A DNA stretch of 30,838 bases, from IMG/VR virus record IMGVR_UViG_2917413769_000005, one strand, 5' to 3'. This document shows positions 1-29,490 of this stretch, one piece after another (the stretch's first letter is position 1; each line of letters starts with the position of its first letter). The stretch is from a virus. Taxonomy: Duplodnaviria > Heunggongvirae > Uroviricota > Caudoviricetes. Below the pieces are notes generated by a model. It was not told the DNA's origin. It did not search any database and was given only the letters and a program-made list of their open reading frames with translations. Made by a program: the position numbers and the translations under genes.

Positions 1-384
1 TCACTCATCAGCGCCGCACTTATCTCTGTAGCTAGAAGGTACTGGCTCGCTAAATCGGGTATAGATTTTTTTATCTGTTACATAGTATGAAACGCCAGCT
101 GAAAATATACCTTTGGGTTTCATGCTGATTTTCATGATGAATGGAGAAAATCCTTCATAGGCTCCGAAGCCATTTTTTCCATTGATCTGGCCGCATACGT
201 AGCCAACAGTAGCGCCTTCCGATGATTGCTCAGTCTGAACAAATCTTAAATATCTAAATTTAACGCTATCTGGATCCCTAACGTCAGTTGCTATTTCCTT
301 CTTACCTAATTCAACTGCTTTTTCTGCGCTTGGCTTGCATCCAACGAGAGAAACCAAAGCCAGTATTAACAACACCTTTTTCAT
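1..384 (-). CDS. predicted lipoprotein, function unknown (possible moron or flanking host gene)
   Basis: 127-aa ORF; N-terminus MKKVLLILALVSLVGC is a type II signal peptide with lipobox Cys; ATG at 382-384 preceded by GGGATAGGGA; stop TGA at 1-3; visibly AT-richer than the phage genes. Confidence 0.55.
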   Translation of the reverse strand: MKKVLLILALVSLVGCKPSAEKAVELGKKEIATDVRDPDSVKFRYLRFVQTEQSSEGATVGYVCGQINGKNGFGAYEGFSPFIMKISMKPKGIFSAGVSYYVTDKKIYTRFSEPVPSSYRDKCGADE

Positions 385-509
385 ATCCCTATCCCATCAT
401 CGCTATTAATATGCTGACCGATGTTATCAAAGATATTTTCTCTGGAGAAAGCGTTTTACTTGAAGTTGCCCCCGCACTGAATGGATTTACGGGGGCGCTT
501 TGACTATGG

Positions 510-758
510 TCAGAGAGCCAGATTAAGCTGGTCTCTGCCGTAATGTGATGCCGGGAAGGCATCGCGGGGGATGAAGTCAGGCGGTAGCGATGCAACACCT
601 GCGCGTTTTGTTACTTCCCTTTCCACACTGTTAAGCGTGGTGAATGACCGGCTACATTCCAGATTCTGACACTGGTGATATTGCCGGATTGTCATATCGG
701 TTATTTTACGGCTGGTACGTGTGCGGGCCATAGCGCCGCAAAATGGACATCTGAACAT
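510..758 (-). CDS. ogr: Ogr/Delta-type zinc-finger late transcription activator
   Basis: Translation MFRCPFCG...RTSRKITD...YHQCQNLECSRSF matches the Cys4 Ogr pattern; ATG at 756-758 with GGGGAG upstream; the ORF-track start at 791 has no RBS. Confidence 0.75.
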   Translation of the reverse strand: MFRCPFCGAMARTRTSRKITDMTIRQYHQCQNLECSRSFTTLNSVEREVTKRAGVASLPPDFIPRDAFPASHYGRDQLNLAL

Positions 759-797
759 AATGATGGCTCCCCTGTGGGAGTTGAACTCCATTTCATT

Positions 798-1934
798 TTA
801 TTCAGTTTCCGCGATCCAGTCAGGTATTTTCGCTTCCAGCTCCAGCCGGGTGGTAAAACCGCTGTCGTCTATGACGTGCTCAGCACGCGCAATGATCCAA
901 TCCTGATTATCTATTTCATCCTTAAAACCACTTACCGTGACGTGCATTTCCGGGTAAAGCTCAGCGCGGCCACGCGCCAGGGTGATCGAAAACTCTGCTG
1001 CGCCACGCTGAAGCTGTTGCCACTTTGCCGCCGCCGCACGTTTCGCCGCCTCTTCATTCTGGTAGGTTTTGCGCAGCACATAAACGTTACCGTCTGCGCC
1101 CTCCATGTAATCGCCCTCGCGGCTGCTGCTCTTCTCTTTTTTGGGCTTTGCAGGTTTGCGGCGCTTAACGCTGACCTTTTTCTTTTTGCCAAAATTCAGA
1201 TCCAGCCAGTAAGCCCGGACGCCGGTATAGGCATCCCGATCGGCAATACGAAAGCGATGCCGGTCGCCACTTGTGCGATCAATACTGGCAGAGGGGAGCG
1301 CCTTCCCGTCAGCGGTCACACCACCACCCGGCAGGATAAACAGCAGACTGCCGTTCTTGACGGTGGCAATTGCGCCCAGCATGTCCGCCATGCGAGTAAG
1401 GAATGACATATCGCTTTCCTGCGTCTGGTCGGCGTGATCAATCTCAATATCTATGAGCATTTCACTGATCTGCGCCTTCAGTCCGTAGCGGTGCGCTATT
1501 GCCGACACAACTCGCTCAACGGTCACGTCATGCCATGAGACTTCGCGCTTTACGTTGAATTCTTCACGAAAATCAGCGCTGCGGGCAGTAACGCCAATGG
1601 TATCTGCCGGGCCTTCGTGGGAAACCTCGTCAACCGTGTACAGCCCCTTGTAAATCAGCGGTTCACCCAGCCAGCCAAATGATACGGCAAGCTCAGCCCC
1701 GCGCGGCGGCAGTGCAACCATACCGTCACTGTCATCAATGGAAATAGATAGCTGATCAGCATCAAAGCCCCTGTTGTCCGTCAGTGACAACGACATGATC
1801 CGATCATCAAGCTGCGTCAGTACCTTGCCGCCCATCGTAATGTTGAATCCCGGACTTTTTACCGCTTCGGTCAGTGAATCGTTATAACTGCTGACTGCGT
1901 CGTTAAGTGATTTGGTCAGGTCTGTAAGTGCCAT
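798..1934 (-). CDS. D: tail protein D (late control gene D family)
   Basis: 378 aa with GDRHRFR..RDAYTGV and C-terminal LQRGAAEFSITLARGR..TRLELE pattern typical of P2 gpD; RBS AAGGGGGA before ATG at 1932-1934. Confidence 0.85.
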   Translation of the reverse strand: MALTDLTKSLNDAVSSYNDSLTEAVKSPGFNITMGGKVLTQLDDRIMSLSLTDNRGFDADQLSISIDDSDGMVALPPRGAELAVSFGWLGEPLIYKGLYTVDEVSHEGPADTIGVTARSADFREEFNVKREVSWHDVTVERVVSAIAHRYGLKAQISEMLIDIEIDHADQTQESDMSFLTRMADMLGAIATVKNGSLLFILPGGGVTADGKALPSASIDRTSGDRHRFRIADRDAYTGVRAYWLDLNFGKKKKVSVKRRKPAKPKKEKSSSREGDYMEGADGNVYVLRKTYQNEEAAKRAAAAKWQQLQRGAAEFSITLARGRAELYPEMHVTVSGFKDEIDNQDWIIARAEHVIDDSGFTTRLELEAKIPDWIAETE

Positions 1935-1987
1935 GCTTTCCCCCTTCTTCCGGCGAAGGATCCCACGCGCGCGGGAGATACCAAATC

Positions 1988-2016
1988 GGTTTTTGTTGTC
2001 ACCGTCCTGCCAGACC
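1988..2016. promoter_or_regulatory. conserved motif GGTTTT(T)GTTGTC-N9-CCAGACC in the divergent D/FI intergenic region; putative late promoter activator site
   Basis: Same motif with identical spacing recurs at 18035-18062 in the O/P divergent region; read on the minus strand it gives TCT-N12-ACA, close to the Ogr-site pattern TGT-N12-ACA. Confidence 0.4.
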
Positions 2017-2042
2017 CGTAATAGCGTGAGTGGCGGTCAAAC

Positions 2043-3269
2043 ATGGGGGATTATCACTGCGAACTCAATAACGTAATGGTGGAAACTATGGCGGAAGATC
2101 GCTTTCATGGTGCCCGCATCCGGGAGAATACCGACCTTGTGGCGGCTATCAATGACATTGAATCGAATGTCATTGGGGTCGTCGCCGTGGCGGATGATGC
2201 CGATGCGGAAGCCTTTCCCCTGAATACCCCCGTGTTAGTGACGCGGGTTAACAACGTGCTGGGTAAGGCGGGTAAAACCGGCTCCCTGTACAAAACGCTT
2301 AAGGCCATCGCTGACCAGACCAGCCCGAAGGTGATCGTTGTGCGCGTGGCAGCAGCTACGGAAGAGGAAGGCGGTAAAACGCAGGCACAGCTTATCATGG
2401 GCGGCACGGCAGAAGACGGCAGCTATACCGGCATGTACGCATTCCTGACGGCAGAACAGAAGGTCGGCTATCGTCCGCGCATTCTGGCTGTGCCGGGATA
2501 CGACACGGAAGAAGTGACCTCCGCGTTGTGCGTCATTGCGCAAAACCTGCGCGCGTTTGTCTATGCCAGTTGTTACGGCTGTAAGACGATGGCGGAAGCC
2601 ATCACCTATCGCGCAACCTTCGCCTACCGCGAACTTATGCTTATCTGGCCTGATTTCATCGCCTATAACCCGCTGACCGGAGAAAACGAAACCTTCCCGG
2701 CCCCGGCGTATGCCTGCGGCCTGCGTGCGCTGATTGACAACAATCAGGGCTGGCATAAATCGCTTTCCAACGTATCAGTCAACAACGTGCTGGGTATTTC
2801 TCAGGATGTTTTCTGGTCGCTTCAGGCAGAAGACAGCGACGCGAACGAACTGAACAACAAGGAGATCACGACGCTCATCAAGCGTAACGGATTCCGGTTC
2901 TGGGGAAACCGCGTCACGGATACCAAAGATTACATCTTTGAGGTTTATACCCGTACCGCCCAGATTCTGGCTGACAGCATTGCGGAAGCGCAGTTTGAGG
3001 CCATTGACGAACCGCTTACCCCAGCGAACGTCAAGGACGTGGTGAGCGGTATCAGCGGGAAACTCAGCTCGCTGGTGACGCAGGGGCGGCTAATCGGCGC
3101 TGAATGCTGGTTTGATATCCTGGATAACCCGACAACCGGGCTTCGACAGGGTCAGGTGCGCATTCGCTATAAATATACGCCGGTTCCGCCGATGGAGGAT
3201 CTGACGATGTACCAGACCTTCACCGATGAATACTTTGAATCGGCGTTCTCTTCGCTGGGAGGTGCATAA
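2043..3269 (+). CDS. FI: contractile tail sheath protein
   Basis: 408 aa; N-terminal MGDYH and overall pattern (DADAEAFPLN, RAFVYAS, GFRFWGNR, YKYTPVPPMEDL) match P2 FI. Confidence 0.9.
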   Translation: MGDYHCELNNVMVETMAEDRFHGARIRENTDLVAAINDIESNVIGVVAVADDADAEAFPLNTPVLVTRVNNVLGKAGKTGSLYKTLKAIADQTSPKVIVVRVAAATEEEGGKTQAQLIMGGTAEDGSYTGMYAFLTAEQKVGYRPRILAVPGYDTEEVTSALCVIAQNLRAFVYASCYGCKTMAEAITYRATFAYRELMLIWPDFIAYNPLTGENETFPAPAYACGLRALIDNNQGWHKSLSNVSVNNVLGISQDVFWSLQAEDSDANELNNKEITTLIKRNGFRFWGNRVTDTKDYIFEVYTRTAQILADSIAEAQFEAIDEPLTPANVKDVVSGISGKLSSLVTQGRLIGAECWFDILDNPTTGLRQGQVRIRYKYTPVPPMEDLTMYQTFTDEYFESAFSSLGGA

Positions 3270-3785
3270 ATGGCGGTTCCCCACAAACTGCGCCTGTTCA
3301 CCTGCTTTGTGAACGGCAGCAACTGCATCGGCAAAGTCTCTTCCGTGACGCTGCCAAAGCTGACACGTAAAACGGAAGACTTTCAGGGCGGCGGGATGAT
3401 TGGATCCGCTGCGGTGGATCTCGGTCTGGACAGTGGCGCGCTGGATACCACGATGGTGGTTGGCGGTCTGGTTCAGTCGCTTCTGCTGAACTACTGCGGC
3501 GATATCGACGAGACCCGCTTCCGCTTCGCCGGCGAGTATTACACCGATGGTGAAAGCCTGCTGGTTGAGGTCGAACTGCGCGGCCGCATCACCGAAATGG
3601 ACGGCGGTGAAAGCAAGCAGGGAGAAGACACCTCCGTCAGCTACACGATGAAGAACACCTACTACAAGCTCACCATCGACGATAAGCCGTTGTTTGAGTT
3701 TGATCTGCTGAACTTCATCTACAAGAAAGACGGCAAGAATATCTACCCTGACCGCATTACGTCTGCGCTGGGAATGGGTAACTGA
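3270..3785 (+). CDS. FII: tail tube protein
   Basis: 171 aa; VTLPKLTRKTEDFQGGGMIGSAAVDLGLD matches P2 FII; starts directly after the FI stop. Confidence 0.9.
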   Translation: MAVPHKLRLFTCFVNGSNCIGKVSSVTLPKLTRKTEDFQGGGMIGSAAVDLGLDSGALDTTMVVGGLVQSLLLNYCGDIDETRFRFAGEYYTDGESLLVEVELRGRITEMDGGESKQGEDTSVSYTMKNTYYKLTIDDKPLFEFDLLNFIYKKDGKNIYPDRITSALGMGN

Positions 3786-3833
3786 TTAACCTGATAAGTG
3801 GCGGCACACCCGTGCCGCCCGGAGTATTCAACA

Positions 3834-4151
3834 ATGAGCAAAAAAAACGATAACGCCATTACGCTGGCAAAACCCGTTGTTCGCGGCGATGAGAAAATTA
3901 CTCAGGTAACGATCACTGATGAGATCAAACAGGCTGGTTCCCTGCGCGGGCTGAAGCTGGTTAACGTGATGAATATGGATGTGGATTCAGTAGCGATATT
4001 GCTGACCCGCGTCACGTCACCGCGCCTCAAACAAACCGAGATCAACGAAATGGATACCCGTGATTTTGTCAGCCTGTCAGAAGCGCTCGTCCCTTTTTTG
4101 ACGCCTGCGGGGTCTGGAGCATCGAACGAGGCGGAGACGGAGAATCAGTAA
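3834..4151 (+). CDS. E: tail assembly chaperone E
   Basis: ATG at 3834 (MSKKNDNAITLAKPVVRGDEK) with GGAG 9 nt upstream; contains slippery T_TTT_TTG at 4094-4100 near its 3' end as in P2 E. Confidence 0.8.
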   Translation: MSKKNDNAITLAKPVVRGDEKITQVTITDEIKQAGSLRGLKLVNVMNMDVDSVAILLTRVTSPRLKQTEINEMDTRDFVSLSEALVPFLTPAGSGASNEAETENQ

Positions 4152-4312
4152 CACTCCTGCGGTTCGACCTGATCGACGATCTGGTCGCTGATATCGCGGT
4201 TGTTTTCAACTGGCCGCCCTCTGAAGTCTTCACGATGGAACTGGGCGAAGTCATAGCCTGGCGTGAGCGGGCGGCTGTCCGAAGTGGAGCCAGTGACAGT
4301 GAAAAGCCTTAA
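3834..4312 (+). CDS. tail assembly chaperone E+E' fusion made by -1 programmed ribosomal frameshift
   Basis: Slippery heptamer TTTTTTG at 4094-4100; the -1 frame reads on through ...WPPSEVFTMELGEVIAWRERAAVRSG... to TAA at 4310-4312, overlapping the start of T. Confidence 0.6.
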
Positions 4313-6797
4313 TATCCGCGTCGCGTTCAGCGCGATCGATAAACTTACCCGCCCGGTCAATGCCGCCCGCCAGAGTGCGGGCGGTTTGTCTGAATCCCTC
4401 AAAAAAACGCAATCCAGCATTAAAGATCTGGACAGCCAGTCCCGCACGTTCAACCGTCTGCGCGACAGCGTACAAAAGACCTCTCGCAAAATTGACGAAG
4501 CCAGCCGGACGCTTGAAGGGCTGAATCAGGCGCAGCGGGAAGGTACACAGCTTACAGACAAGCAAAAAGCACATATGGCAGCACTGGCCGCAAAGCTGGA
4601 GCGCCTTAACTCTGCACGCACGCAGGAAATGGTTAAGCTGCGTGCTGCCTCACAGGCGCTGCGCAGCCACGGCGTTTCACTGGTCGGCAGTGATCGCACC
4701 ATTCAGAGCGCGATACGTCGAACCGAACAGTACAACCAGACGCTGGAGCGGGAACGGCGACAGCTTGCCGCTGTCACACAGGCACGGGCGCGCTATGACC
4801 AGATGCAGCAAACAGCGGGTAAACTTCGCGGCGGTGGCACGATGGCCGTTGCCGGGGCCACTGCTGCCGGTTACGCAGCGGGACGCTTCTTATCCCCCGC
4901 TGTTGGGTTTGACCGGGAAATGTCCCGCGTGCAGGCGCTGACCCGTATAGATAAAAGCTCAACAGACTTTTCAGCACTTCGTGAACAGGCCAAAAAGCTG
5001 GGCGCTGAAACGCAGTTCACCACGACTGACGCCGCCAGCGGGCAGGCGTTTCTCGCTATGGCCGGTTTCACTCCGCAGGCCATTCAGGCAGCACTGCCCG
5101 GCGTGCTCAATATGGCACTGGCCGGTGGCATGGATTTAGGTGAAAGCGCCGATATCAGCTCAAACATCCTGTCTCAGTTCCGCCTCGATCCCAAAGAAAT
5201 GGATCGCGTCAGTGACGTATTAACTGGCGCGTTCACACGTACCAACACCGATCTGCAAAATATCGGTGAGGCTATGAAGTACGCCGGGACAGGTCTTTCC
5301 AATCTTGGCGTCAGTGTTGAACAGACAACAGCCATGATCGGCGTGATGGCAAACGTTGGCCTGCGCGGGAGTATCGCCGGGACAGGATTACAGGCCGCGT
5401 TTTCACGCCTTGCCGCGCCAACCGGCAGGGCAAAAACCGCTCTCAAAGAACTGGGAGTAGACGTTGCTGATGCCACGGGGAAAATGCGCCCTGCTGAAGA
5501 GGTTCTCACTGAACTCTATAAAAAGATCAGCAAGTACGGCGATACCGACAAGCTCTCTTTCTTTAAAGATATCGCCGGTGAAGAGGCGTCAAAGTCATTG
5601 CAGGCACTGGTTATGTCAGCCGGGAGCGGCGAACTTCAAAAGCTGCTGGAAGCACTGAAAAACGCCAAAGGTGAGGCACAGAAAGCCGCCAAAATAATGG
5701 CGGATAACCTTGATGGCGATCTCAAGAATCTGGACAGCGCATGGGAAGGGTTTCGCATCCAGATTAACGATCTCGTCGATAACCAGCTTCGCGCCCTGAC
5801 TCAGGGGCTGAGTGATGTTGTGGGGAATATGACGCAGTGGGCGAAGGAGAATCCGAAGCTCGCTCAATCCCTGCTGGTTGTCGGCGGCAGCATTCTGGCA
5901 CTGACCGCCGCCATTGGCGGCACATCGCTGGCGATCGGCCTGCTGATGGGGCCACTGGCTAAACTCCAGTTAGGTTTTACCCTATTGACAGGGGGCGCAA
6001 CCGGAACAATCTCCGCCCTACGAACGCTCGGAACAGCTTCCGGCCCGGCAATGGCAAGTGTGCGCGGTTGGGGGCCTGTTCTCACATCAATGCTTAGTAA
6101 GCTGCGAGGCATATCGATCATCACGCCCGGCATTCGTGCCGGTCTTATGGGTGCGTTTCTTTCCCCAGGGGCTGCATTAGGATCTCTGTTCAAAAACATC
6201 GGAATGCTCGCTCTTCGCCTGACAGGCTTTACGACCATATGGAGCATTATCACGACCTCAGTATCTGTACTGGGTGCAGCGCTCTCACTTCTACTTAGTC
6301 CGATTGGTCTGATAGCGGCGGCTTTTATCGCTGCCGGATTGCTAATCTGGAGATTCTGGGAGCCGATAAGAGCCTTTTTCACCGGTTTTTTCAGCGGAGT
6401 TATGCAGCAACTGGCACCTTTCCGTGATGCCTTTTTCCCTTTGACGCTGGCCTTCTCAGCAATAGCCAAAGTCGTTGGTGAAGTCTGGGACTGGTTTGTA
6501 AAACTCTTATCACCTGTGGAAAGTAGCCGTGAATCCCTTGATAAATGCGCATCAGCAGGGGAAACATTCGGTAAAGTCCTGGGTAGCGCCCTTCAGTTGC
6601 TGCTATTACCTCTGACAACCCTCATGGAAGGCATTGGCTGGGTACTGGAAAAACTCGGCCTTATCCCTTCTGGTCTGGAAGCTGCACGCCTGAAAGCTGA
6701 AAGCCTTAAAAAAGACCCTGTTATGTGGGAGTGGGATCCGCAGCAGAAAAAAAATGGTGCAAAAGGGATGGAACTGGTCGCCAGTCTCATCAGGTAA
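4299..6797 (+). CDS. T: tail tape measure protein, N-terminal and main part (frame 0)
   Basis: Long coiled-coil-rich then hydrophobic Gly/Ala-rich protein typical of tape measure proteins; likely GTG start at 4299 (GGAG 9 nt upstream; alternative starts 4263-4293); frame ends at TAA 6795-6797 just after an A8 run. Confidence 0.8.
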   Translation: MKSLNIRVAFSAIDKLTRPVNAARQSAGGLSESLKKTQSSIKDLDSQSRTFNRLRDSVQKTSRKIDEASRTLEGLNQAQREGTQLTDKQKAHMAALAAKLERLNSARTQEMVKLRAASQALRSHGVSLVGSDRTIQSAIRRTEQYNQTLERERRQLAAVTQARARYDQMQQTAGKLRGGGTMAVAGATAAGYAAGRFLSPAVGFDREMSRVQALTRIDKSSTDFSALREQAKKLGAETQFTTTDAASGQAFLAMAGFTPQAIQAALPGVLNMALAGGMDLGESADISSNILSQFRLDPKEMDRVSDVLTGAFTRTNTDLQNIGEAMKYAGTGLSNLGVSVEQTTAMIGVMANVGLRGSIAGTGLQAAFSRLAAPTGRAKTALKELGVDVADATGKMRPAEEVLTELYKKISKYGDTDKLSFFKDIAGEEASKSLQALVMSAGSGELQKLLEALKNAKGEAQKAAKIMADNLDGDLKNLDSAWEGFRIQINDLVDNQLRALTQGLSDVVGNMTQWAKENPKLAQSLLVVGGSILALTAAIGGTSLAIGLLMGPLAKLQLGFTLLTGGATGTISALRTLGTASGPAMASVRGWGPVLTSMLSKLRGISIITPGIRAGLMGAFLSPGAALGSLFKNIGMLALRLTGFTTIWSIITTSVSVLGAALSLLLSPIGLIAAAFIAAGLLIWRFWEPIRAFFTGFFSGVMQQLAPFRDAFFPLTLAFSAIAKVVGEVWDWFVKLLSPVESSRESLDKCASAGETFGKVLGSALQLLLLPLTTLMEGIGWVLEKLGLIPSGLEAARLKAESLKKDPVMWEWDPQQKKNGAKGMELVASLIR

Positions 6798-7281
6798 AAA
6801 CAATAACGGGAATACACCCCCGCCCGGAACGCCGCAACCCACATCACCGCTGACCGGCGATAACGGCACTATGCGTCGATTGCAGAACATCGACAGCAAC
6901 ACCAAAGCGACAGCCGACAACACGAAGAAGATCGGCCCCGGCGATATTGTATTTAAAAACCTGCCGCGTGCTCTGGCCGTTCGTGGGGAATGGAAAGAAT
7001 CGCAGCTGGCCAGCACGGTCAGGAACAACGGGTTAAGCGCACGCCCCGCAGTGGTGGCGGCATCGCTTCCCGTAAAACAGGCGGAACTTCCGCCAGTCAG
7101 CCGCAGCGCCAACAATATACCGGTTGCCACTGGCGGCTTTACGGGAGAAATCCACGTACACCTGCACGGCGTTGACCGGCAGGACGCGCGCGAAATTGGC
7201 CGCATTGCTGCCGACGCGGTGAATGCCGAAATTGCCCGCCTTGCGCGGCTTAATCGCGGCAGTTTCAAAGACAGAGATTAA
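6754..7281 (+). CDS. tape measure protein C-terminal segment in +1 frame (frameshifted T or separate ORF)
   Basis: Frame open from 6694; fills the T-U gap where P2 has no gene; ends ...IGRIAADAVNAEIARLARLNRGSFKDRD right before the U RBS; frame change coincides with A8 at 6747-6754. Confidence 0.5.
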   Translation: MVQKGWNWSPVSSGKNNNGNTPPPGTPQPTSPLTGDNGTMRRLQNIDSNTKATADNTKKIGPGDIVFKNLPRALAVRGEWKESQLASTVRNNGLSARPAVVAASLPVKQAELPPVSRSANNIPVATGGFTGEIHVHLHGVDRQDAREIGRIAADAVNAEIARLARLNRGSFKDRD

Positions 7282-7295
7282 GGGGAGGCAACATT

Positions 7296-7784
7296 ATGAT
7301 GATGATATATGGGATGTTCGTTTTTGAACTGAAGACGCTGCCTTACCAGCAACTGCGCCACTCGCTGAACTGGCGTCATGTGAAGAATGATCGCATCAAC
7401 CGATCGGCAAAATGGCAGTACATCGGCGCAGGTGAGACGCAGATCAACCTTGATGGAGTGCTCTACCCTGAAATTACAGGCGGAGACGTATCTCTTACCG
7501 TGCTGGCAACGCAGGCATACACTGGGCGTCCGTGGCCTTTAATCAGCGGCGCGGGGCAGATTTACGGGATGTATGTGCTGACCGGACTACAGGCCACGCA
7601 TACGGAATTTGACCGCTACGGAAAGGCGAAAAAAATAGAGTTTTCGATCAGCTTCCAGCGCTGCGATGAAGACCTGCGCGAACGCCTGCAAGCGTCGTCT
7701 GTTGGCGATCTGCTTTCAGGGCTGAAGGATAAAGCCACGTCCGCCTATAATTCTGCCAGTAGTACGCTGTCGGGCCTGTTCTGA
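7296..7784 (+). CDS. U: tail protein U
   Basis: 162 aa MMMIYGMFVFELKTLPYQQLRHS...GVLYPEITGG pattern of P2 gpU family; strong RBS AAGGGGAGG 7 nt upstream. Confidence 0.85.
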   Translation: MMMIYGMFVFELKTLPYQQLRHSLNWRHVKNDRINRSAKWQYIGAGETQINLDGVLYPEITGGDVSLTVLATQAYTGRPWPLISGAGQIYGMYVLTGLQATHTEFDRYGKAKKIEFSISFQRCDEDLRERLQASSVGDLLSGLKDKATSAYNSASSTLSGLF

Positions 7785-7801
7785 CTGCACCCCATAAAAC
7801 T

Positions 7802-7826
7802 AAAGCGGGCTTTGCCCGCTTTATCT
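7802..7826. terminator. bidirectional rho-independent terminator between convergent U and G
   Basis: Perfect hairpin AAAGCGGGC-TTT-GCCCGCTTT at 7802-7822, flanked by T-runs on both strands. Confidence 0.7.
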
Positions 7827-7936
7827 TCCGGAACACACCGCCATAACTGACTGTGCTACAGCACCGTTAAAAATGACTGTACTCGATACGCACGGCCAGC
7901 ACGGTTATAACCGGCCATACGTGCCGGAATGAAAAC

Positions 7937-8533
7937 TTATTCCGGCTTATCCGGCCAGATGATATCCGGCGCTTTTGACGTGTCCACCGCCTGCACGGCT
8001 TTGATGTAGTGCATCCAGACGATCAGGCTAGTTTTATCTTCATCGCTGATAATGCCTAACTGTAGCTCCGTCTGCCAGAGACTGATCGTTGCCTGACCCC
8101 CACTCAATAACGCTGTTTTCTGTTGCTCTGCCGCTTCCACGTCCGCCGCGTGCTGCGCTTTGGTATCCGTCACCCACTCGCTACCGTTCCACGTATCGTA
8201 TGGCGTAGACGGTGCCAGCGTAGTGGTTTTTTCCGGATAATCACCCGGCGCAGTAATGGAAACCTCTTCACCTGTTTCAGTGCTGTATACCGTTTCGCCA
8301 CGATGATCAGCAACGTATTCCCACGCTTTCAAATCGGCTGTCCGGCAAATAGCCGAACCGGCTTTAGCCTCGCCCGGGGCGTCAGTACAGGAATTTGCGG
8401 GAAGACCTACTCCTATAGCCAAATACTCAACTGATGAAGAAAGGTATTCTCGCGTCTCGCCCTCGTAGTTAAACACTGTGATTTCACCTGCCACCGTGGC
8501 AATAAGTTCACTGTTTAATTTTGCCTGCGTCAT
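7937..8533 (-). CDS. G: tail fibre assembly chaperone
   Basis: 198 aa; C-terminal ...LWQTELQLGIISDEDKTSLIVWMHYIKAVQAVDTS..PDIIWPDKPE typical of tail fibre assembly proteins; ATG overlaps the H stop (TAATG). Confidence 0.8.
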   Translation of the reverse strand: MTQAKLNSELIATVAGEITVFNYEGETREYLSSSVEYLAIGVGLPANSCTDAPGEAKAGSAICRTADLKAWEYVADHRGETVYSTETGEEVSITAPGDYPEKTTTLAPSTPYDTWNGSEWVTDTKAQHAADVEAAEQQKTALLSGGQATISLWQTELQLGIISDEDKTSLIVWMHYIKAVQAVDTSKAPDIIWPDKPE

Positions 8534-9555
8534 TATGCGGCCCTCACAATGTAGTTAAACGCGACGTTACGTGGGCGTGTTTCCGCGCCGCCAGTATTGC
8601 CAACCCGGCCTTTTGTATGCAACGTAGGTGAAGCAATCAAAGTTCCGGGCGCTGCCGCGTCAATCCCTCGCCCTTGCACGTATGTTGATTTAACGATTAC
8701 CCCGATATCCCATTCATCCGTAGTATCGTAACCTTCATTTGCCACGATAATATGTCGGTGCTTTTCCAGCATTCCCAATTCTGTACTTAACAAACCCCGA
8801 CCAGAGTTGACACCGCGCCCATCATCCCAGCCCCGCAAAAATTCGCCTCGCAGATCTGGCAATTTGCCAGTTGAGTAAACTTTTGCCAGCTTCGGATATT
8901 TTGCTGTATCAAATGTTGCGCCGTTACACTTTAACCACCCCTCTGGAGGCGTTGCCTGCGGCCACGGAAGCGGAAAGCCCACAGGGATATATTTATCAAT
9001 ATCCGCTGTTTTGAGATATTGGGGGTGCGGGTCAGCGGCGGCAAGATGTGCGGCCAGTTGCTGATCCACATATGCCTTCACTTCAATAACGGCATCATCA
9101 ACATATTTACGGGTTGCCAGCACCACGGACGGATCGATTTTCAGCGTTACCGCCTCGGTACTGCTGACGATCAGGATTACGCGAATGACCTGCACGCGCC
9201 CGCTGCCTTCCTGCAACTGCGGTTTGTAGGTCTCAGCACAGTTGGCAACCGCAATCATATCGCCGTCTTTATCAAACAGGCCGATCTCACGGATCCACCA
9301 CCCGCCCACGTCTTCAGGTATAACCTGTTCCGCAATAATCTGATTGGTGTTTACGGGATCGATAGTCAGCATGTTCAGTTGCGCGCGGCGCAGCTCATGC
9401 GTCAGCGCGGTTTGTGCCGGGTTCGGTGTCGGCAGCACACCATTGCCATCACCCACGGCCATCTGGGTGATCTCAACCTTCGCACCCAATGCCGTGGCGT
9501 TTGCCAGCTTTGCCGCCCCGATGTTGGTTAACAGGGCAAAATATTTAGTCGCCAC
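8533..9555 (-). CDS. H: tail fibre protein (P2 H-like N-terminus, collar-type C-terminal domain)
   Basis: N-terminus ...NIGAAKLANATALGAKVEITQMAVGDGNG...GSGRVQVIRVILIVSS matches the P2 H anchor domain; C-terminus GWLKCNGATF...LPDLRGEFLRGW resembles the phage tail collar motif; GTG start at 9555 with GGAG upstream (ORF track gives 9576). Confidence 0.75.
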   Translation of the reverse strand: MATKYFALLTNIGAAKLANATALGAKVEITQMAVGDGNGVLPTPNPAQTALTHELRRAQLNMLTIDPVNTNQIIAEQVIPEDVGGWWIREIGLFDKDGDMIAVANCAETYKPQLQEGSGRVQVIRVILIVSSTEAVTLKIDPSVVLATRKYVDDAVIEVKAYVDQQLAAHLAAADPHPQYLKTADIDKYIPVGFPLPWPQATPPEGWLKCNGATFDTAKYPKLAKVYSTGKLPDLRGEFLRGWDDGRGVNSGRGLLSTELGMLEKHRHIIVANEGYDTTDEWDIGVIVKSTYVQGRGIDAAAPGTLIASPTLHTKGRVGNTGGAETRPRNVAFNYIVRAA

Positions 9556-10159
9556 TTGCGATCTCCACGGTATCAATTAAATGGACTGCCGCGCCGGTGT
9601 AGTCACCACCGCCCACGGATATGGTTTCCGGAAAATAAGGGTAAACGGTCAGCGTATCGCCGATATAACATCCCGCCCCGACTTCGATATACCCCTGCGA
9701 CTGAAGCGAAAGGGACAGGCCAGTCAGGTGGCGACTTCTCGGCTTTGCATCGTCAATAAGGCGCTCAAGCTCAAGATAGGTTTCCTCCGTAATCCCCTGT
9801 TCCTGAATACCGATTTCAAGCTTGAATGTTCCCGGTTCTTCGCCGCTTTGCCACCACTCGATCACGCGCAGCAGAAAGCCGAAAGGTTCAACGACGCGGC
9901 GCAAAGCGGAAATGGTGCCCTTCTGACGGTGAACCAGCCAGGAAGCTTTAATCACCTGCCGTTTAGTCTGTTCTGACCAGTTCTTATCCCAGCGGTCAAC
10001 AGACAGCGCCCAGGCGAGATAAGGCAGAAGATCAGCCGGACATTCGTCCGGGTTCCACAGCTTGCGCAGGTCAACAGGAATATCGGTAAGCCGTTCCGTC
10101 ACCTTCTCCGTACTGCGCATAAAACCGCTGGCCGAAGGCGGCAGCATGTTGTTATTCAT
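9545..10159 (-). CDS. I: baseplate assembly protein I
   Basis: ...LRKLWNPDECPADLLPYLAWALSVDRWD...VIKAS... matches P2 gpI; ATG at 10159 has a GGGGG RBS; overlaps the J stop. Confidence 0.8.
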   Translation of the reverse strand: MNNNMLPPSASGFMRSTEKVTERLTDIPVDLRKLWNPDECPADLLPYLAWALSVDRWDKNWSEQTKRQVIKASWLVHRQKGTISALRRVVEPFGFLLRVIEWWQSGEEPGTFKLEIGIQEQGITEETYLELERLIDDAKPRSRHLTGLSLSLQSQGYIEVGAGCYIGDTLTVYPYFPETISVGGGDYTGAAVHLIDTVEIASGD

Positions 10160-11403: not shown

Positions 11404-11981
11404 TTCGGCCCCCCGGTGTTGCTGCTGCCACCCTGCACACCACTATGTACGTGCGAATGAACCGTCACCCCGTTAGACGTAAGCGATCCGCCAGAATGGG
11501 TAACATTGCCCTTCATCGTGCCGCCCTCCGACAGTTCGAACGTCCGCGCTTTCAGATGGTCGGTACATTCTACAATCGGTGTTTCAAGCGTGACGCTGGC
11601 AGAGGCTTTGATATGTGCTGTCTTCATGCCCTGCGCTTCCAGCGCGCTGGCTTCTGCGTCATAGCGGAAAGAGGCTCCGTCTGGCGCTGTCAGCACAATC
11701 TCTTTCAGGCTGCTGCCCGGCGCAGGGTTGTCACTGCTGTAGAGACTGCCGATAATGACCGCTGTTTCAGGGTTGCCACCGATACAGCCCAGCCAGACCT
11801 GCTCACCCACGGAAGGCGGCACCCAGATACTGAATGCTCCGGCGCGCGTGGTGTTCCAGCGCAGCCAGTCGGTCTGAAGCTCGCCGCTTTGCACGCGCAC
11901 GCGCCAGCTCTCTTCATCAACAGCAATAACGACGCCGACGCGGAGGATATTTTCCAGCAGGCGGATCAGTTCAGCGCTCAT
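11400..11981 (-). CDS. V: baseplate spike/assembly protein V
   Basis: 193 aa with ...WLRW...VGEQVW...G..THSGG..SNGVTVHSHVHSG... typical of P2 gpV; ATG overlaps the S stop. Confidence 0.85.
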   Translation of the reverse strand: MSAELIRLLENILRVGVVIAVDEESWRVRVQSGELQTDWLRWNTTRAGAFSIWVPPSVGEQVWLGCIGGNPETAVIIGSLYSSDNPAPGSSLKEIVLTAPDGASFRYDAEASALEAQGMKTAHIKASASVTLETPIVECTDHLKARTFELSEGGTMKGNVTHSGGSLTSNGVTVHSHVHSGVQGGSSNTGGPK

Positions 11982-12616
11982 CGTGCGGCACTCCCCAGGC
12001 TGTTAACCACCTGTTCCGTAATCATCCGCTCATCGCCAGCGGTAAAGCCCAGCAGCTCACGCACCGGATATTTAGCAAAGGCACCCGGCCCGACCTGATC
12101 GCGCTGGCCGTACTGGTGCACACGCGCAATGCGTGCCACCACACCGTCATAACCCACGGAAGTGCCGCCAGCATCAGCGCGCATTTTGAGAAAGCGATAG
12201 CTGCGCAGCCTCTGAAACATCGGCACTTTCTTTGCGGTGCTGCGGCGCACTGAGCGTGTATTGATCTCGATGTAACGCTCAATGTCGCTGCGGTAAAAGG
12301 TGCGAATATCGTTGCGCTCTTCGTCAAAGCCGGTAATGGTTCGCCCGTATTTTCCCCGGCCACCGTGCCAGTTTTTGAGGCGGCGGATCTCGCCCTGCCA
12401 GACAAACACAATGCCCTGTTGAGAACGTAGCACCCGGCGACGGCGGGCAGGATATGGCGAGCCTTCCGGGTTTTGCTGGGCTTTAATGCGCTGTTGCTGG
12501 CTCTTTCGCAGTGCCTGACCAACCGCGCGGGCGGTGCGAATACGTCCGGCCTGAGAGGTGCCCGCCAGTATGTCGCTGAAGACCTGATCCAGCTCACGGA
12601 AGAGATCGTTACTCAT
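11978..12616 (-). CDS. S: tail completion / virion morphogenesis protein (S-like)
   Basis: Sits between R and V as in P2; 212 aa; ATG 12616 with GGGAGG RBS, overlapping the R stop. Confidence 0.65.
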   Translation of the reverse strand: MSNDLFRELDQVFSDILAGTSQAGRIRTARAVGQALRKSQQQRIKAQQNPEGSPYPARRRRVLRSQQGIVFVWQGEIRRLKNWHGGRGKYGRTITGFDEERNDIRTFYRSDIERYIEINTRSVRRSTAKKVPMFQRLRSYRFLKMRADAGGTSVGYDGVVARIARVHQYGQRDQVGPGAFAKYPVRELLGFTAGDERMITEQVVNSLGSAAR

Positions 12617-17967: not shown

Positions 17968-18034
17968 GTCGATAATCCTGTTGAGTGGTTTCTGTACGGC
18001 CATGATGGCAGAGCGTAACTTGCTGTCTCAACGA

Positions 18035-18062
18035 GGTTTTGTTGTCGGAGGAGGGCCAGACC
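18035..18062. promoter_or_regulatory. second copy of the GGTTTTGTTGTC-N9-CCAGACC motif in the divergent O/P late promoter region
   Basis: Identical spacing to the copy at 1988-2016; lies about 70-80 bp upstream of the minus-strand O start, as the first copy does for D. Confidence 0.4.
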
Positions 18063-18126
18063 ATAAAGGGGGCGATAGCGGGATCGCGCGCGGGGTAATC
18101 TTCACTCCATAAACGGTGGAGGGCAG

Positions 18127-29376: not shown

Positions 29377-29448
29377 GTGTAATAATCCCCTTTGTTGTTC
29401 AGCCGCTTCTAGCTGGCTGTAGCTGCTTCTGGCGGATGTTTTAATGAG

Positions 29449-29490
29449 TCAGATATGACCCATCGAAAATGAGGATAGATCAGATATGAC
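29449..29490. promoter_or_regulatory. C/cox switch region with two 11-bp direct repeats TCAGATATGAC (putative C operator half-sites)
   Basis: Exact copies at 29449-29459 and 29480-29490, 31 bp apart; the second overlaps the C start codon; P2 C is known to bind direct repeats. Confidence 0.45.

Follow-up and report, generated by a model that had tools for sequence, protein, structure and literature searches.

The window, that is, the whole stretch of 30,838 nucleotides analyzed here, is a P2-like temperate phage (Peduoviridae). The P2-type structural gene set and the P2-type blocks (Q-P / O-N-M-L, lysis, R-S-V-W-J-I-H-G, FI-FII-E-T-U-D, ogr and int-C-cox-A) are all present, as seen from open reading frames (ORFs), PHROG matches for ten tail and regulatory proteins and tblastn comparison with P2. 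Outside the region described below the order of the prophage is P2-like (int-C-cox...A...Q-P/O-N-M-L...V-W-J-I-H-G). The identities and strands of seven tail genes and of ogr were confirmed by the ORF list and PHROG profile matches, with FI, FII, E/E', T and U on the plus strand and ogr, D and G through V on the minus strand:

510-758 (ORF to 791), minus strand: ogr, late activator (phrog_603; phiT5282H annotates an 82-aa homologue)
798-1934, minus strand: D, tail/baseplate hub protein (phrog_52, E = 5e-156)
2088-3269 (ORF open from 2043), plus strand: FI, tail sheath (phrog_23)
3270-3785, plus strand: FII, tail tube (phrog_55, E = 1.7e-53)
3834-4151 (ORF start at 3798), plus strand: E (phrog_103)
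3834-4312, plus strand: E+E', predicted −1 frameshift product (slippery heptamer T TTT TTG at 4094-4100)
4263-7281, plus strand: T, tape measure (phrog_28; phrog_17114 matches both pieces)
7296-7784, plus strand: U, last gene of the inverted block (phrog_76, E = 9e-69)
7937-8533, minus strand: G, tail fibre assembly protein (phrog_105, E = 6.5e-88)
8533-9576, minus strand: H, followed by the genes onward to V

The label "head closure" attached to phrog_55 is the library's own, and the homologue in P2-like records is FII. The heptamer TTTTTTG lies in the correct frame and the −1 frame stays open until 4312, which predicts the E/E' frameshift of P2-like phages from sequence and frame analysis. 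T is split here into two ORFs (4263-6797 and 6754-7281) by a run of eight A at 6747-6754; the same run has seven A in a relative of 96% identity, where comparison located the single-base gap, and T of the relatives is one ORF of about 1000 codons. The start codon of FI, placed by the first-pass annotation at 2043, is 45 nt off. The ATG at 2088 is conserved (a CAT column in 44/44 aligned relatives), while the upstream ATG is missing in the Erwinia relatives and indels that are not multiples of three occur between the two; the resulting N-terminus MAEDRFHG aligns with MSDYHHG of P2. D is 98% identical to D of phiT5282H and 47% to that of P2, and its ATG, preceded by a purine-rich Shine-Dalgarno sequence, is kept in 39/44 relatives. 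G is the final gene of the leftward late operon that comes from V, and probably from O, as S and V overlap by ATGA and leave no intergenic room for a separate pV. The only ORF of at least 60 aa in 7785-7936 is an antisense one of 62 aa overlapping the end of U, so a Z/fun-type gene is absent from the G junction, as had been supposed.

In the P2 record FI-FII-E-T-U-D-ogr runs co-directional with V-G. The first-pass annotation was thus right that the FI-U block is inverted relative to P2, and gene strands and order bear out its statement that the inversion has physically separated D from FI-U. The unusualness it implied is another matter: this orientation is normal in a P2-like lineage that has already been described, a refuting result it had itself named beforehand. 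The same layout is found in phiT5282H (Novemvirus), P88 (Xuanwuvirus), SEN4/SEN5 (Senquatrovirus) and Klebsiella 3LV2017 (Reginaelenavirus), and the inverted order is also seen in 500465-2 and the Klebsiella Kp48xx phages by comparing the strands of the D and FI matches in phage records.

A genome scan based on D yielded 63 genomic loci, on which tblastn synteny analysis was run together with four phage records. Where both D and FI were detected, all loci with D at least 63% identical to that of the window were inverted and all those with D at most 53% identical were canonical, giving a tally, with three further phage records and the window itself added, of 47 inverted and 20 canonical. A further 12 inverted and 3 canonical IMG/VR contigs obey the same rule on D identity. 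Trees of D and of FI, made quickly by neighbour joining from tblastn segments and lacking support values, each unite the inverted loci in a single clade, which spans over 30 enterobacterial species. Both trees put the window with phiT5282H and its relatives, and the outgroups (P2, ENT90 and Yersinia, Burkholderia and Cardiobacterium relatives) are canonical. As the sampling was seeded from the D protein of the window, distant lineages with other arrangements are under-sampled. A single orientation is found in 59/59 clade members (47 loci and 12 IMG/VR contigs). With the orientation fixed across the lineage, the feature is not specific to the window; the inverted FI-U block is the inherited layout of a large, already sequenced enterobacterial P2-like group and hence ordinary. 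The inversion goes unmentioned in the searchable literature, including the papers on P88, SEN4/5, PP4 and PhiSM, which is weak evidence given that subscription journals are thinly covered there.

This sharing of the layout bears directly on whether the block was simply mis-oriented during genome assembly. Beyond the general possibility we found nothing in favour of such an artefact, whose probability we regard as vanishingly small: the 47 loci are independent and include complete chromosomes and isolated phage genomes, so that, with the 12 contigs, the agreement of many assemblies excludes it, the junctions hold no repeats able to mislead an assembler, and they carry conserved signals specific to this orientation, namely a candidate promoter dyad flanked by two −10-like hexamers at D/FI and a candidate terminator at U/G.

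The uniform orientation also argues against an active invertible segment, flipped by a site-specific recombinase in the manner of the Gin/Cin/Hin tail-fibre switches. The idea draws on a DNA invertase present at the G/U junction of some relatives (P88 and E. coli EcPF16) and on a gix-like crossover site that adjoins a copy of the U/G cassette described below in canonical-order phages. Neither junction of the window, however, has an invertase gene according to the ORF list and PHROG, and no inverted repeats bracket 1935-7936; in a search of positions 1-9500 for inverted repeats the best pairs had 70%-89% matches over 18-34 nt at unrelated positions, none of them bracketing the block. Crossover repeats, an adjacent serine invertase and both orientations, which together mark segments of the Gin/Cin/Hin/Pin type, are thus all missing. 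The canonical orientation would moreover make D overlap U, whereas D here is provided with a Shine-Dalgarno sequence, a start codon and promoter-like signals of its own, and the invertases of the relatives adjoin duplicated tail-fibre genes. Such duplicated genes are the usual target of these invertases. We consider a present-day switch extremely improbable. Invertase action at the gix-like site was also considered as the cause of the original inversion and rejected, since the way in which cassette, invertase and block are placed and oriented relative to each other in canonical and inverted phages is at odds with a simple gix-mediated event.

Another route to the same arrangement is module replacement, in which illegitimate or homologous recombination would have introduced a reversed FI-U cassette taken from another P2-like phage. 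In its favour, the genomes of P2-like phages are mosaics whose tail modules can be rearranged, as in Smp131 (PMC3931495), and variable cargo accumulates at the G/U junction. On the other hand FI, which lies within the block, and D, which lies beyond its end, give the same clade and a similar identity to P2 (48% and 47%-48%, respectively), and this congruence leaves no sign of a separate origin of the block, which makes replacement unlikely in our judgment. Inversion in situ and module replacement have the same present-day consequence. We hold with high confidence that the window is a P2-like prophage of the Novemvirus/phiT5282H lineage, in which a single inversion between G and D turned round FI-FII-E/E'-T-U and its late promoter in the ancestor of a large enterobacterial clade and was then fixed. 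We take this clade to include Novemvirus, Xuanwuvirus (P88), Senquatrovirus (SEN4/5), Reginaelenavirus (3LV2017) and many prophages. The inverted order is compatible with infectious particles, which are made by P88 (PMC5285337) and SEN4/5 (PMC5261728), and also come from PhiSM (PMC6456863) and PP4/KSP20 (PMC9826266), linked to the inverted clade here by FI identity.

A close examination of the spacer between D and FI, in an alignment of 44 non-redundant relatives, identified the following elements:

1935-2087, no strand assigned: D/FI control region of 153 bp (the 3LV2017 annotation also gives 153 bp)
1957-1962, minus strand: predicted −10 element of the D promoter, GATCCT, preceded by a CGCGCGCG box at 1966-1973
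1997-2014, no strand assigned: Ogr-type dyad TGT-N12-AGA, within the extended motif GGTTTTTGTTGTC-N9-CCAGACC
2049-2054, plus strand: predicted −10 element of the FI promoter, GATTAT

The region is divergent, as first described, but its length of 108 bp (1935-2042) has to be corrected to the 153 bp given above. The consensus of P2 late promoters is TGT-N12-ACA (PMC3931495). In the alignment the ACA half of the dyad is invariant (44/44) and the other half is TGT or TCT in 41/44, so that T(G/C)T-N12-ACA is found in 41/44 spacers, with a constant dyad length and a variable inner sequence; the window has one mismatch, its half-site being TCT/AGA and not TGT/ACA, and 17/44 relatives match perfectly. 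The two −10-like hexamers have A at the second and T at the sixth position in 44/44 relatives. The one on the D side, GATCCT, which is weak as a −10, is always 43-44 nt away from the centre of the dyad; the one on the FI side stands at 44 nt in 43/44 relatives, and in the window both lie symmetrically at 43.5 bp. Distances from hexamer to start codon vary among relatives while those from hexamer to dyad are fixed, and the implied FI leader of about 25 nt is the same as that of P2 pF.

A scan of the whole window for TGT-N12-ACA stayed at chance level (4 exact matches against 5.3 expected, and 105 against 117 with one mismatch). The simple motif is therefore uninformative alone, and the extended motif and comparative conservation are needed. 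For TTGTC-N8-12-CAGA the only other match in the window is at 18042-18060, in the P/O divergent region, and the layout CGCGCGCG-NGG-hexamer recurs at the P promoter (18085-18101). The partial dyad and the −10 elements, in the geometry of the P2 annotation, predict Ogr-dependent late transcription from the D/FI spacer. From the conserved hexamer and dyad, D almost certainly has its own promoter, as had been proposed; its dependence on Ogr, and the use of one Ogr site to drive both FI-U and D-ogr, we infer from conservation and geometry.

The true start of ogr is the ATG at 758 (MFRCPFC...), giving a product of 82 aa whose translation contains the zinc-finger motif CX2CX22CX4C (C4, C7, C30 and C35), by which Ogr-type activators are defined (PMC3931495) and which places it among late activators of the Ogr/B/Delta type. 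A candidate sigma-70-like promoter, CTGACT-17 nt-TAAAAT with 9/12 consensus matches, overlaps the stop codon of D:

795-823, minus strand: candidate sigma-70-like promoter of ogr

In P2 the ogr promoter is annotated just after D, an analogous position, and ogr of the window probably keeps its own sigma-70-like promoter as well.

At the other end of the block, U and G converge on two elements:

7802-7822, no strand assigned: GC-rich hairpin AAAGCGGGC-ttt-GCCCGCTTT, candidate bidirectional intrinsic terminator
7826-7936, plus strand: conserved non-coding cassette, from the terminator to the stop codon of G

The terminator assigned to this convergent junction by the first-pass annotation holds up as a real hairpin and a candidate bidirectional one. 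It folds at −17.6 kcal/mol on the plus strand (z = −4.2, with 0/200 shuffles folding as well), has a stem of 9-10 pairs including 6 GC pairs, and is flanked by AAAACTAAAG... and ...CTTTATCTT, these flanks being an A-run and a T-rich run, with the T-run of the plus strand interrupted. These features predict an intrinsic terminator, and in nearly every clade member a strong hairpin of varying sequence lies directly 3′ of U.

The junction holds more than a terminator. The cassette of about 110 nt contains two imperfect palindromes with arms AGCACNG and is 92.6% identical to that of SEN4/SEN5, whose flanking proteins are only 40%-63% identical. Multiple copies are present in SEN5; the cassette was found in at least four genomic contexts across 57 IMG/VR contigs and in 40/5426 E. 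coli genomes, and it recurs in P2-like phages upstream of dam, Rz and invertase genes. RNAalifold of 42 copies gave weak consensus structures (−1.3 and −6.6 kcal/mol), and Rfam found no family in the whole window or the U/G junction, the only junction match, SraB, being meaningless at E = 0.44. Comparison with the C/cox immunity region (29377-29485) showed no operators in common with the cassette. Among relatives the junction varies in its cargo, of which H-to-U distances proved an unreliable catalogue, the C-termini of H being too variable.

Taken together, these elements suggest how the lineage may have accommodated the inversion. The event would have brought the dyad-symmetric Ogr-binding site of pF beside D, and D could then have gained a −10 element at the matching distance from the dyad, because two divergent promoters can share a dyad-symmetric site, as pP and pO do in the P2 annotation. 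A single Ogr site would activate FI-U rightward and D leftward, with read-through into ogr, and the leftward O-to-G and rightward FI-U transcripts would end head to head at the shared hairpin. A broader and more tentative proposal, about which we are somewhat doubtful, is that the whole late programme of the clade may be run from two Ogr dyads, each feeding a divergent pair (P/O and D/FI), with pD as a late promoter that has no P2 counterpart and arose by re-use of the pF site after the inversion; and, separately, that the U/G cassette may have a regulatory role not yet described, as a site bound by protein or as a structured RNA.

As a discovery the inversion carries little weight, and its modest interest is regulatory. 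The "P2 order" is not universal within Peduoviridae, and annotators should expect FI-U on the opposite strand in the P88, SEN4, 3LV2017 and phiT5282H group. An ancient inversion cut D from its operon, and the symmetric layout of dyad and −10 elements suggests that this may have been tolerated by way of a bidirectional activator site, which makes the D/FI spacer an easily testable case of promoter evolution after rearrangement.

Among known phages, phiT5282H (Novemvirus T5282H, NC_049429 / MG589387), classified in Peduoviridae, matches the window gene by gene: G, then U-T-E-FII-FI on the opposite strand, then D-ogr, in the same order and on the same strands. Nucleotide identity is 91.8% over 512-8582, covering 85% of window positions 1-9000, and the D and FI proteins are 98% and 95% identical. 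Its D/FI gap, extrapolated from coordinates, is 108 bp, as in the window when the upstream FI start is used. T of phiT5282H is one intact ORF whereas that of the window is split by an extra A; the tail-fibre and accessory genes differ, and the identity is below the usual same-species level. Synteny, 92% nucleotide identity over the 9-kb query and both trees place the window in the Novemvirus-like inverted-block lineage. An inverted FI-U block with divergent D/FI and convergent U/G ends is also the arrangement of P88, SEN5 and 3LV2017. In the D and FI trees these three phages fall within the clade of the window, and their spacers contain the conserved dyad; their D proteins are 63%-79% identical to that of the window, and their junction cargo differs, with an invertase and alternative fibre genes in P88 and a macro-domain gene in SEN5. 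Serratia KSP20/PP4 (PMC9826266) and Citrobacter PhiSM (PMC6456863), compared with P88 in the literature and known here by FI identity, have FI 74% identical to that of the window, in the same range as P88.

P2 (AF063097) and the other canonical phages (ENT90, Yersinia vB_YenM_42.18, phiCTX and Burkholderia KS5/KL3) share with the window the gene set, the TTTTTTG frameshift of E/E', an activator of the Ogr type and, in their annotated or predicted late promoters, a dyad near −55. In these phages, however, a single operon, FI-FII-E-T-U-D, runs in the direction of V-G, with the last part of U overlapping the beginning of D, and P2 has Z/fun between G and FI as well as orf30 and pV between S and V. 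The window, unlike P2, has the block inverted, D alone with ogr, no Z/fun and an overlap of S with V. The closest parallel to the predicted D/FI control region is pP/pO of P2, where one annotated activator site (3057-3087) lies midway between divergent starts 111 bp apart, each mapped start being 55-56 bp from the site centre; the predicted D/FI geometry is the same, and the P/O region of the window itself carries the extended dyad motif of D/FI. The P2 pair is experimentally mapped and serves head and packaging genes, whereas the D/FI pair is predicted and would serve tail genes.

Matches to PHROG families and the ORF list of the window place the late genes as follows, with the start of ogr taken also from translation, that of FI from an alignment of 44 clade members, E from a reading of the sequence, and the heptamer from the sequence.

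510-791, minus strand: ogr (mechanical ORF), with its start at 758 (MFRCPFC)
798-1934, minus strand: D
2043 onward, plus strand: FI ORF, with the conserved start at 2088
3270-3785, plus strand: FII
3834 (start) to 4151 (end), plus strand: E
4094-4100, plus strand: slippery heptamer T TTT TTG of E/E'
4263-7281, plus strand: T (tape measure)
7296-7784, plus strand: U
7802-7822: candidate terminator hairpin of 9-10 pairs, -17.6 kcal/mol, z = -4.2
7826-7936, plus strand: conserved non-coding cassette of ~110 nt, bounded by the candidate terminator of U and the stop codon of G
7937-8533, minus strand: G, followed by H, I, J, W, V and the remaining late genes, also on the minus strand

The first-pass annotation was right to put FI through U on the plus strand, with ogr/D and G through V on the minus strand, and to report no Z/fun-type gene at the G junction, as the ORF list of the window holds no Z/fun-like ORF between U and G. 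In the annotated P2 record, FI-FII-E/E'-T-U-D-ogr form a single rightward operon co-directional with V-W-J-I-H-G, so the block is inverted relative to P2, and the departure from the P2 gene order is real. An A8 run at 6747-6754 breaks the tape measure gene into a pair of overlapping ORFs, 4263-6797 and 6754-7281. The corresponding run is A7 in an Izhakiella prophage of 96% identity, and all close relatives carry a single T ORF of ~1000 codons. The A8 run reflects either a sequencing error in a homopolymer or a real inactivating frameshift, which would leave the prophage tail-defective.

The inverted order is widely distributed. With window 1-9000 as megablast query, Enterobacter phage phiT5282H (Novemvirus) matched over a single collinear stretch with 91.8% identity, and the strands in its RefSeq annotation agree with those of the window (G plus, U/T/E/FII/FI minus, D and ogr plus). 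Position and strand of tblastn matches place the divergent D/FI pair also in Escherichia phage 500465-2, the Klebsiella Kp48xx phages, 3LV2017, and SEN5, and the strands of D and FI matches give the canonical order in phiCTX and vB_Pae_BR319a. Full annotations have the inverted order in P88, SEN5, and 3LV2017 and the canonical one in P2, ENT90, and Yersinia vB_YenM_42.18. A genome scan with the D protein, using one genome per species, yielded 63 loci, which were searched together with four phage records by tblastn with twelve window proteins. Wherever D and FI were both detected, a D protein at least 63% identical went with the inverted order (Pantoea, Kosakonia, Enterobacter, Izhakiella, Mixta, Erwinia, Symbiopectobacterium, Serratia, Edwardsiella, Citrobacter, Pectobacterium, Klebsiella, Brenneria, Kluyvera, Salmonella, Raoultella, Yokenella, Rouxiella, and Trabulsiella); the canonical order was present in all loci whose D did not exceed 50% identity (Siccibacter, Burkholderia, Paraburkholderia, Undibacterium, Cardiobacterium, and Roseibium). 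Neighbor-joining trees of D, which lies outside the block, and of FI, which lies inside it, both group the 47 inverted loci as one clade with the 20 canonical loci outside. IMG/VR contigs retrieved for a different purpose add 12 inverted cases (D at least 63% identical) and three canonical ones (D ~53%). We also noticed enterobacterial-type P2-like prophage sequence in two records labeled as Firmicutes, one titled Vagococcus sp. WN89Y (L029, D 78% identical) and one a Planococcaceae MAG (L061, a D fragment of 148 residues, 89% identical); those assemblies appear to be contaminated or mis-binned.

An assembly artefact is excluded by the recurrence of the same order throughout the clade loci, the phage records, and the IMG/VR contigs. 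An active switch is excluded as well: the window search found no inverted repeats bracketing the block, neither the D/FI nor the U/G junction of the window has an invertase gene, and a second orientation was never seen within the clade. The simplest reading is a single ancient inversion that was later fixed. The inverted order is normal and inherited in an already described lineage, the outcome that the first-pass annotation had itself named as refuting, and the unusualness implied by the first-pass annotation does not hold. Viable phages with this order include P88, probably PhiSM and PP4/KSP20, and SEN4/5; the papers on these phages make no mention of the inversion (PMC5285337, PMC6456863, PMC9826266, PMC5261728).

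At the convergent U/G junction, the proposed hairpin is supported as a stable structure by its predicted folding energy, and a strong GC hairpin directly 3' of U, with a sequence that varies by member, is found in almost all of the clade. The G-side junction contains a serine DNA invertase in P88 (record L002, 24860-27564), EcPF16 (L071, 6080-6661), and ENT90 (L068, 12044-12433), accompanied in P88 by duplicated tail-fibre and assembly genes. Since an invertase occurs at the G junction of several relatives, in inverted and canonical gene orders alike, this junction is a cargo hotspot comparable to the P2 Z/fun site, of which the window has the minimal version.

The cassette at 7826-7936 is more than neutral spacer: it shares 92.6% identity with SEN4/5, whereas the neighboring proteins are only 40-63% identical, and it contains two imperfect palindromes with AGCACNG arms; no Rfam match to it was found. 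SEN5 (L003) has three copies, near 7557, 15047, and 31294, all intergenic, and the core AAAATGACnGTnCTCGATA is carried by 57 IMG/VR contigs. At least four contexts were seen: at the G/U junction, immediately ahead of a dam gene, immediately ahead of a gene for an Rz-like spanin, and, with the left half alone, between a gix-like site (AAACCGAGGTTT) and the start of a DNA invertase gene in canonical-order phages. The cassette is present in 40 of 5426 E. coli genomes (median two copies), where it is repeated within prophages, and in E. coli EcPF16 it is flanked by U and the 3' end of the invertase gene. No link between cassette and inversion was established.

The divergent D/FI region exists as described, though its size of 108 bp (1935-2042) had to be corrected. 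In a junction alignment of 44 non-redundant clade members, the FI start is ATG 2088, with the CAT column kept in 44/44 and a GGTGGA Shine-Dalgarno sequence upstream, and the resulting N-terminus, MAEDRFHG, matches the P2 MSDYHHG. ATG 2043 is missing from Erwinia relatives, and non-triplet indels fall between the two ATGs. This extends the spacer to 1935-2087 (153 bp), the same length as in the 3LV2017 annotation. The nearest same-strand gene upstream of D is G, 6 kb off, with the predicted terminator and the antisense strand of FI-U in between, so D needs its own promoter. The predicted promoter elements are as follows.

823-795, minus strand: candidate ogr promoter CTGACT-17-TAAAAT, sigma-70-like, overlapping the D stop codon upstream of the ogr start
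1962-1957, minus strand: D-side hexamer in CGCGCGCG-TGG-GATCCT
1997-2014, read on plus: dyad TGT-N12-AGA, inside GGTTTTTGTTGTC-N9-CCAGACC
2049-2054, plus strand: FI-side -10-like hexamer GATTAT
18004-18126: P/O divergent region, with a dyad at 18043-18060 in GGTTTTGTTGTC-N10-CCAGACC, the same extended motif and flanks as at D/FI
18096-18101: P-side TAATCT in CGCGCGCG-GGG-TAATCT, arranged as on the D side
18007-18002, minus strand: O-side -10-like CATCAT, at the mirror position of TAATCT

Among the 44 aligned sequences, the ACA half of the D/FI dyad is invariant, the other half reads TGT (17), TCT (24), or CCT (3), and the 12-nt spacer is constant in length with 34 different sequences. A2 and T6 of both hexamers are kept in 44/44, and each hexamer lies 43-44 nt from the dyad center in at least 41; the distance from dyad center to start codon varies (67-76 nt for D, 79-89 nt for FI). 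Constant activator-promoter spacing with free leader length gives this spacer the look of a functional promoter pair.

Besides the D/FI copy, the window matches TTGTC-N8-12-CAGA just once, in the P/O region (18042-18060), and the extended motif does not recur elsewhere in it. The second ATG, 17967, is the true start of O; the mechanical ORF start at 18003 falls inside the predicted promoter. S and V overlap by ATGA at 11978-11984, leaving no room for a P2-style pV or an orf30-type gene, in contrast to the 157-bp S/V gap of SEN5; the leftward late operon from O to G may be uninterrupted in this lineage. This overlap, with the lack of a third extended motif, suggests that two dyads may serve four late units in this clade. 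The candidate ogr promoter could be ogr's own, as in P2. The 39-nt D/ogr gap also holds a small hairpin, GGAGTTgaaCTCC, at 777-789.

The window's Ogr has the motif CX2CX22CX4C, which is stated together with the late-promoter consensus TGT-N12-ACA in PMC3931495. From this motif, the D/FI conservation, and the geometry of pP/pO in P2, we infer that one shared Ogr site would activate both a leftward start near 1951 (D, then ogr) and a rightward start near 2062 (FI to U). The inversion would have brought the symmetric pF site beside D, leaving only a -10 element to evolve. This predicted single-dyad bidirectional late promoter is the only mildly new idea here, and it is well supported by comparison. 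In P2, the pV and pF sites lie 55-58 bp upstream of their starts, and one activator site (3057-3087) serves the divergent pP and pO, with mapped starts 111 bp apart and each 55-56 bp from the site center; in Smp131, one dyad is likewise assigned to both pP' and pO' (PMC3931495).
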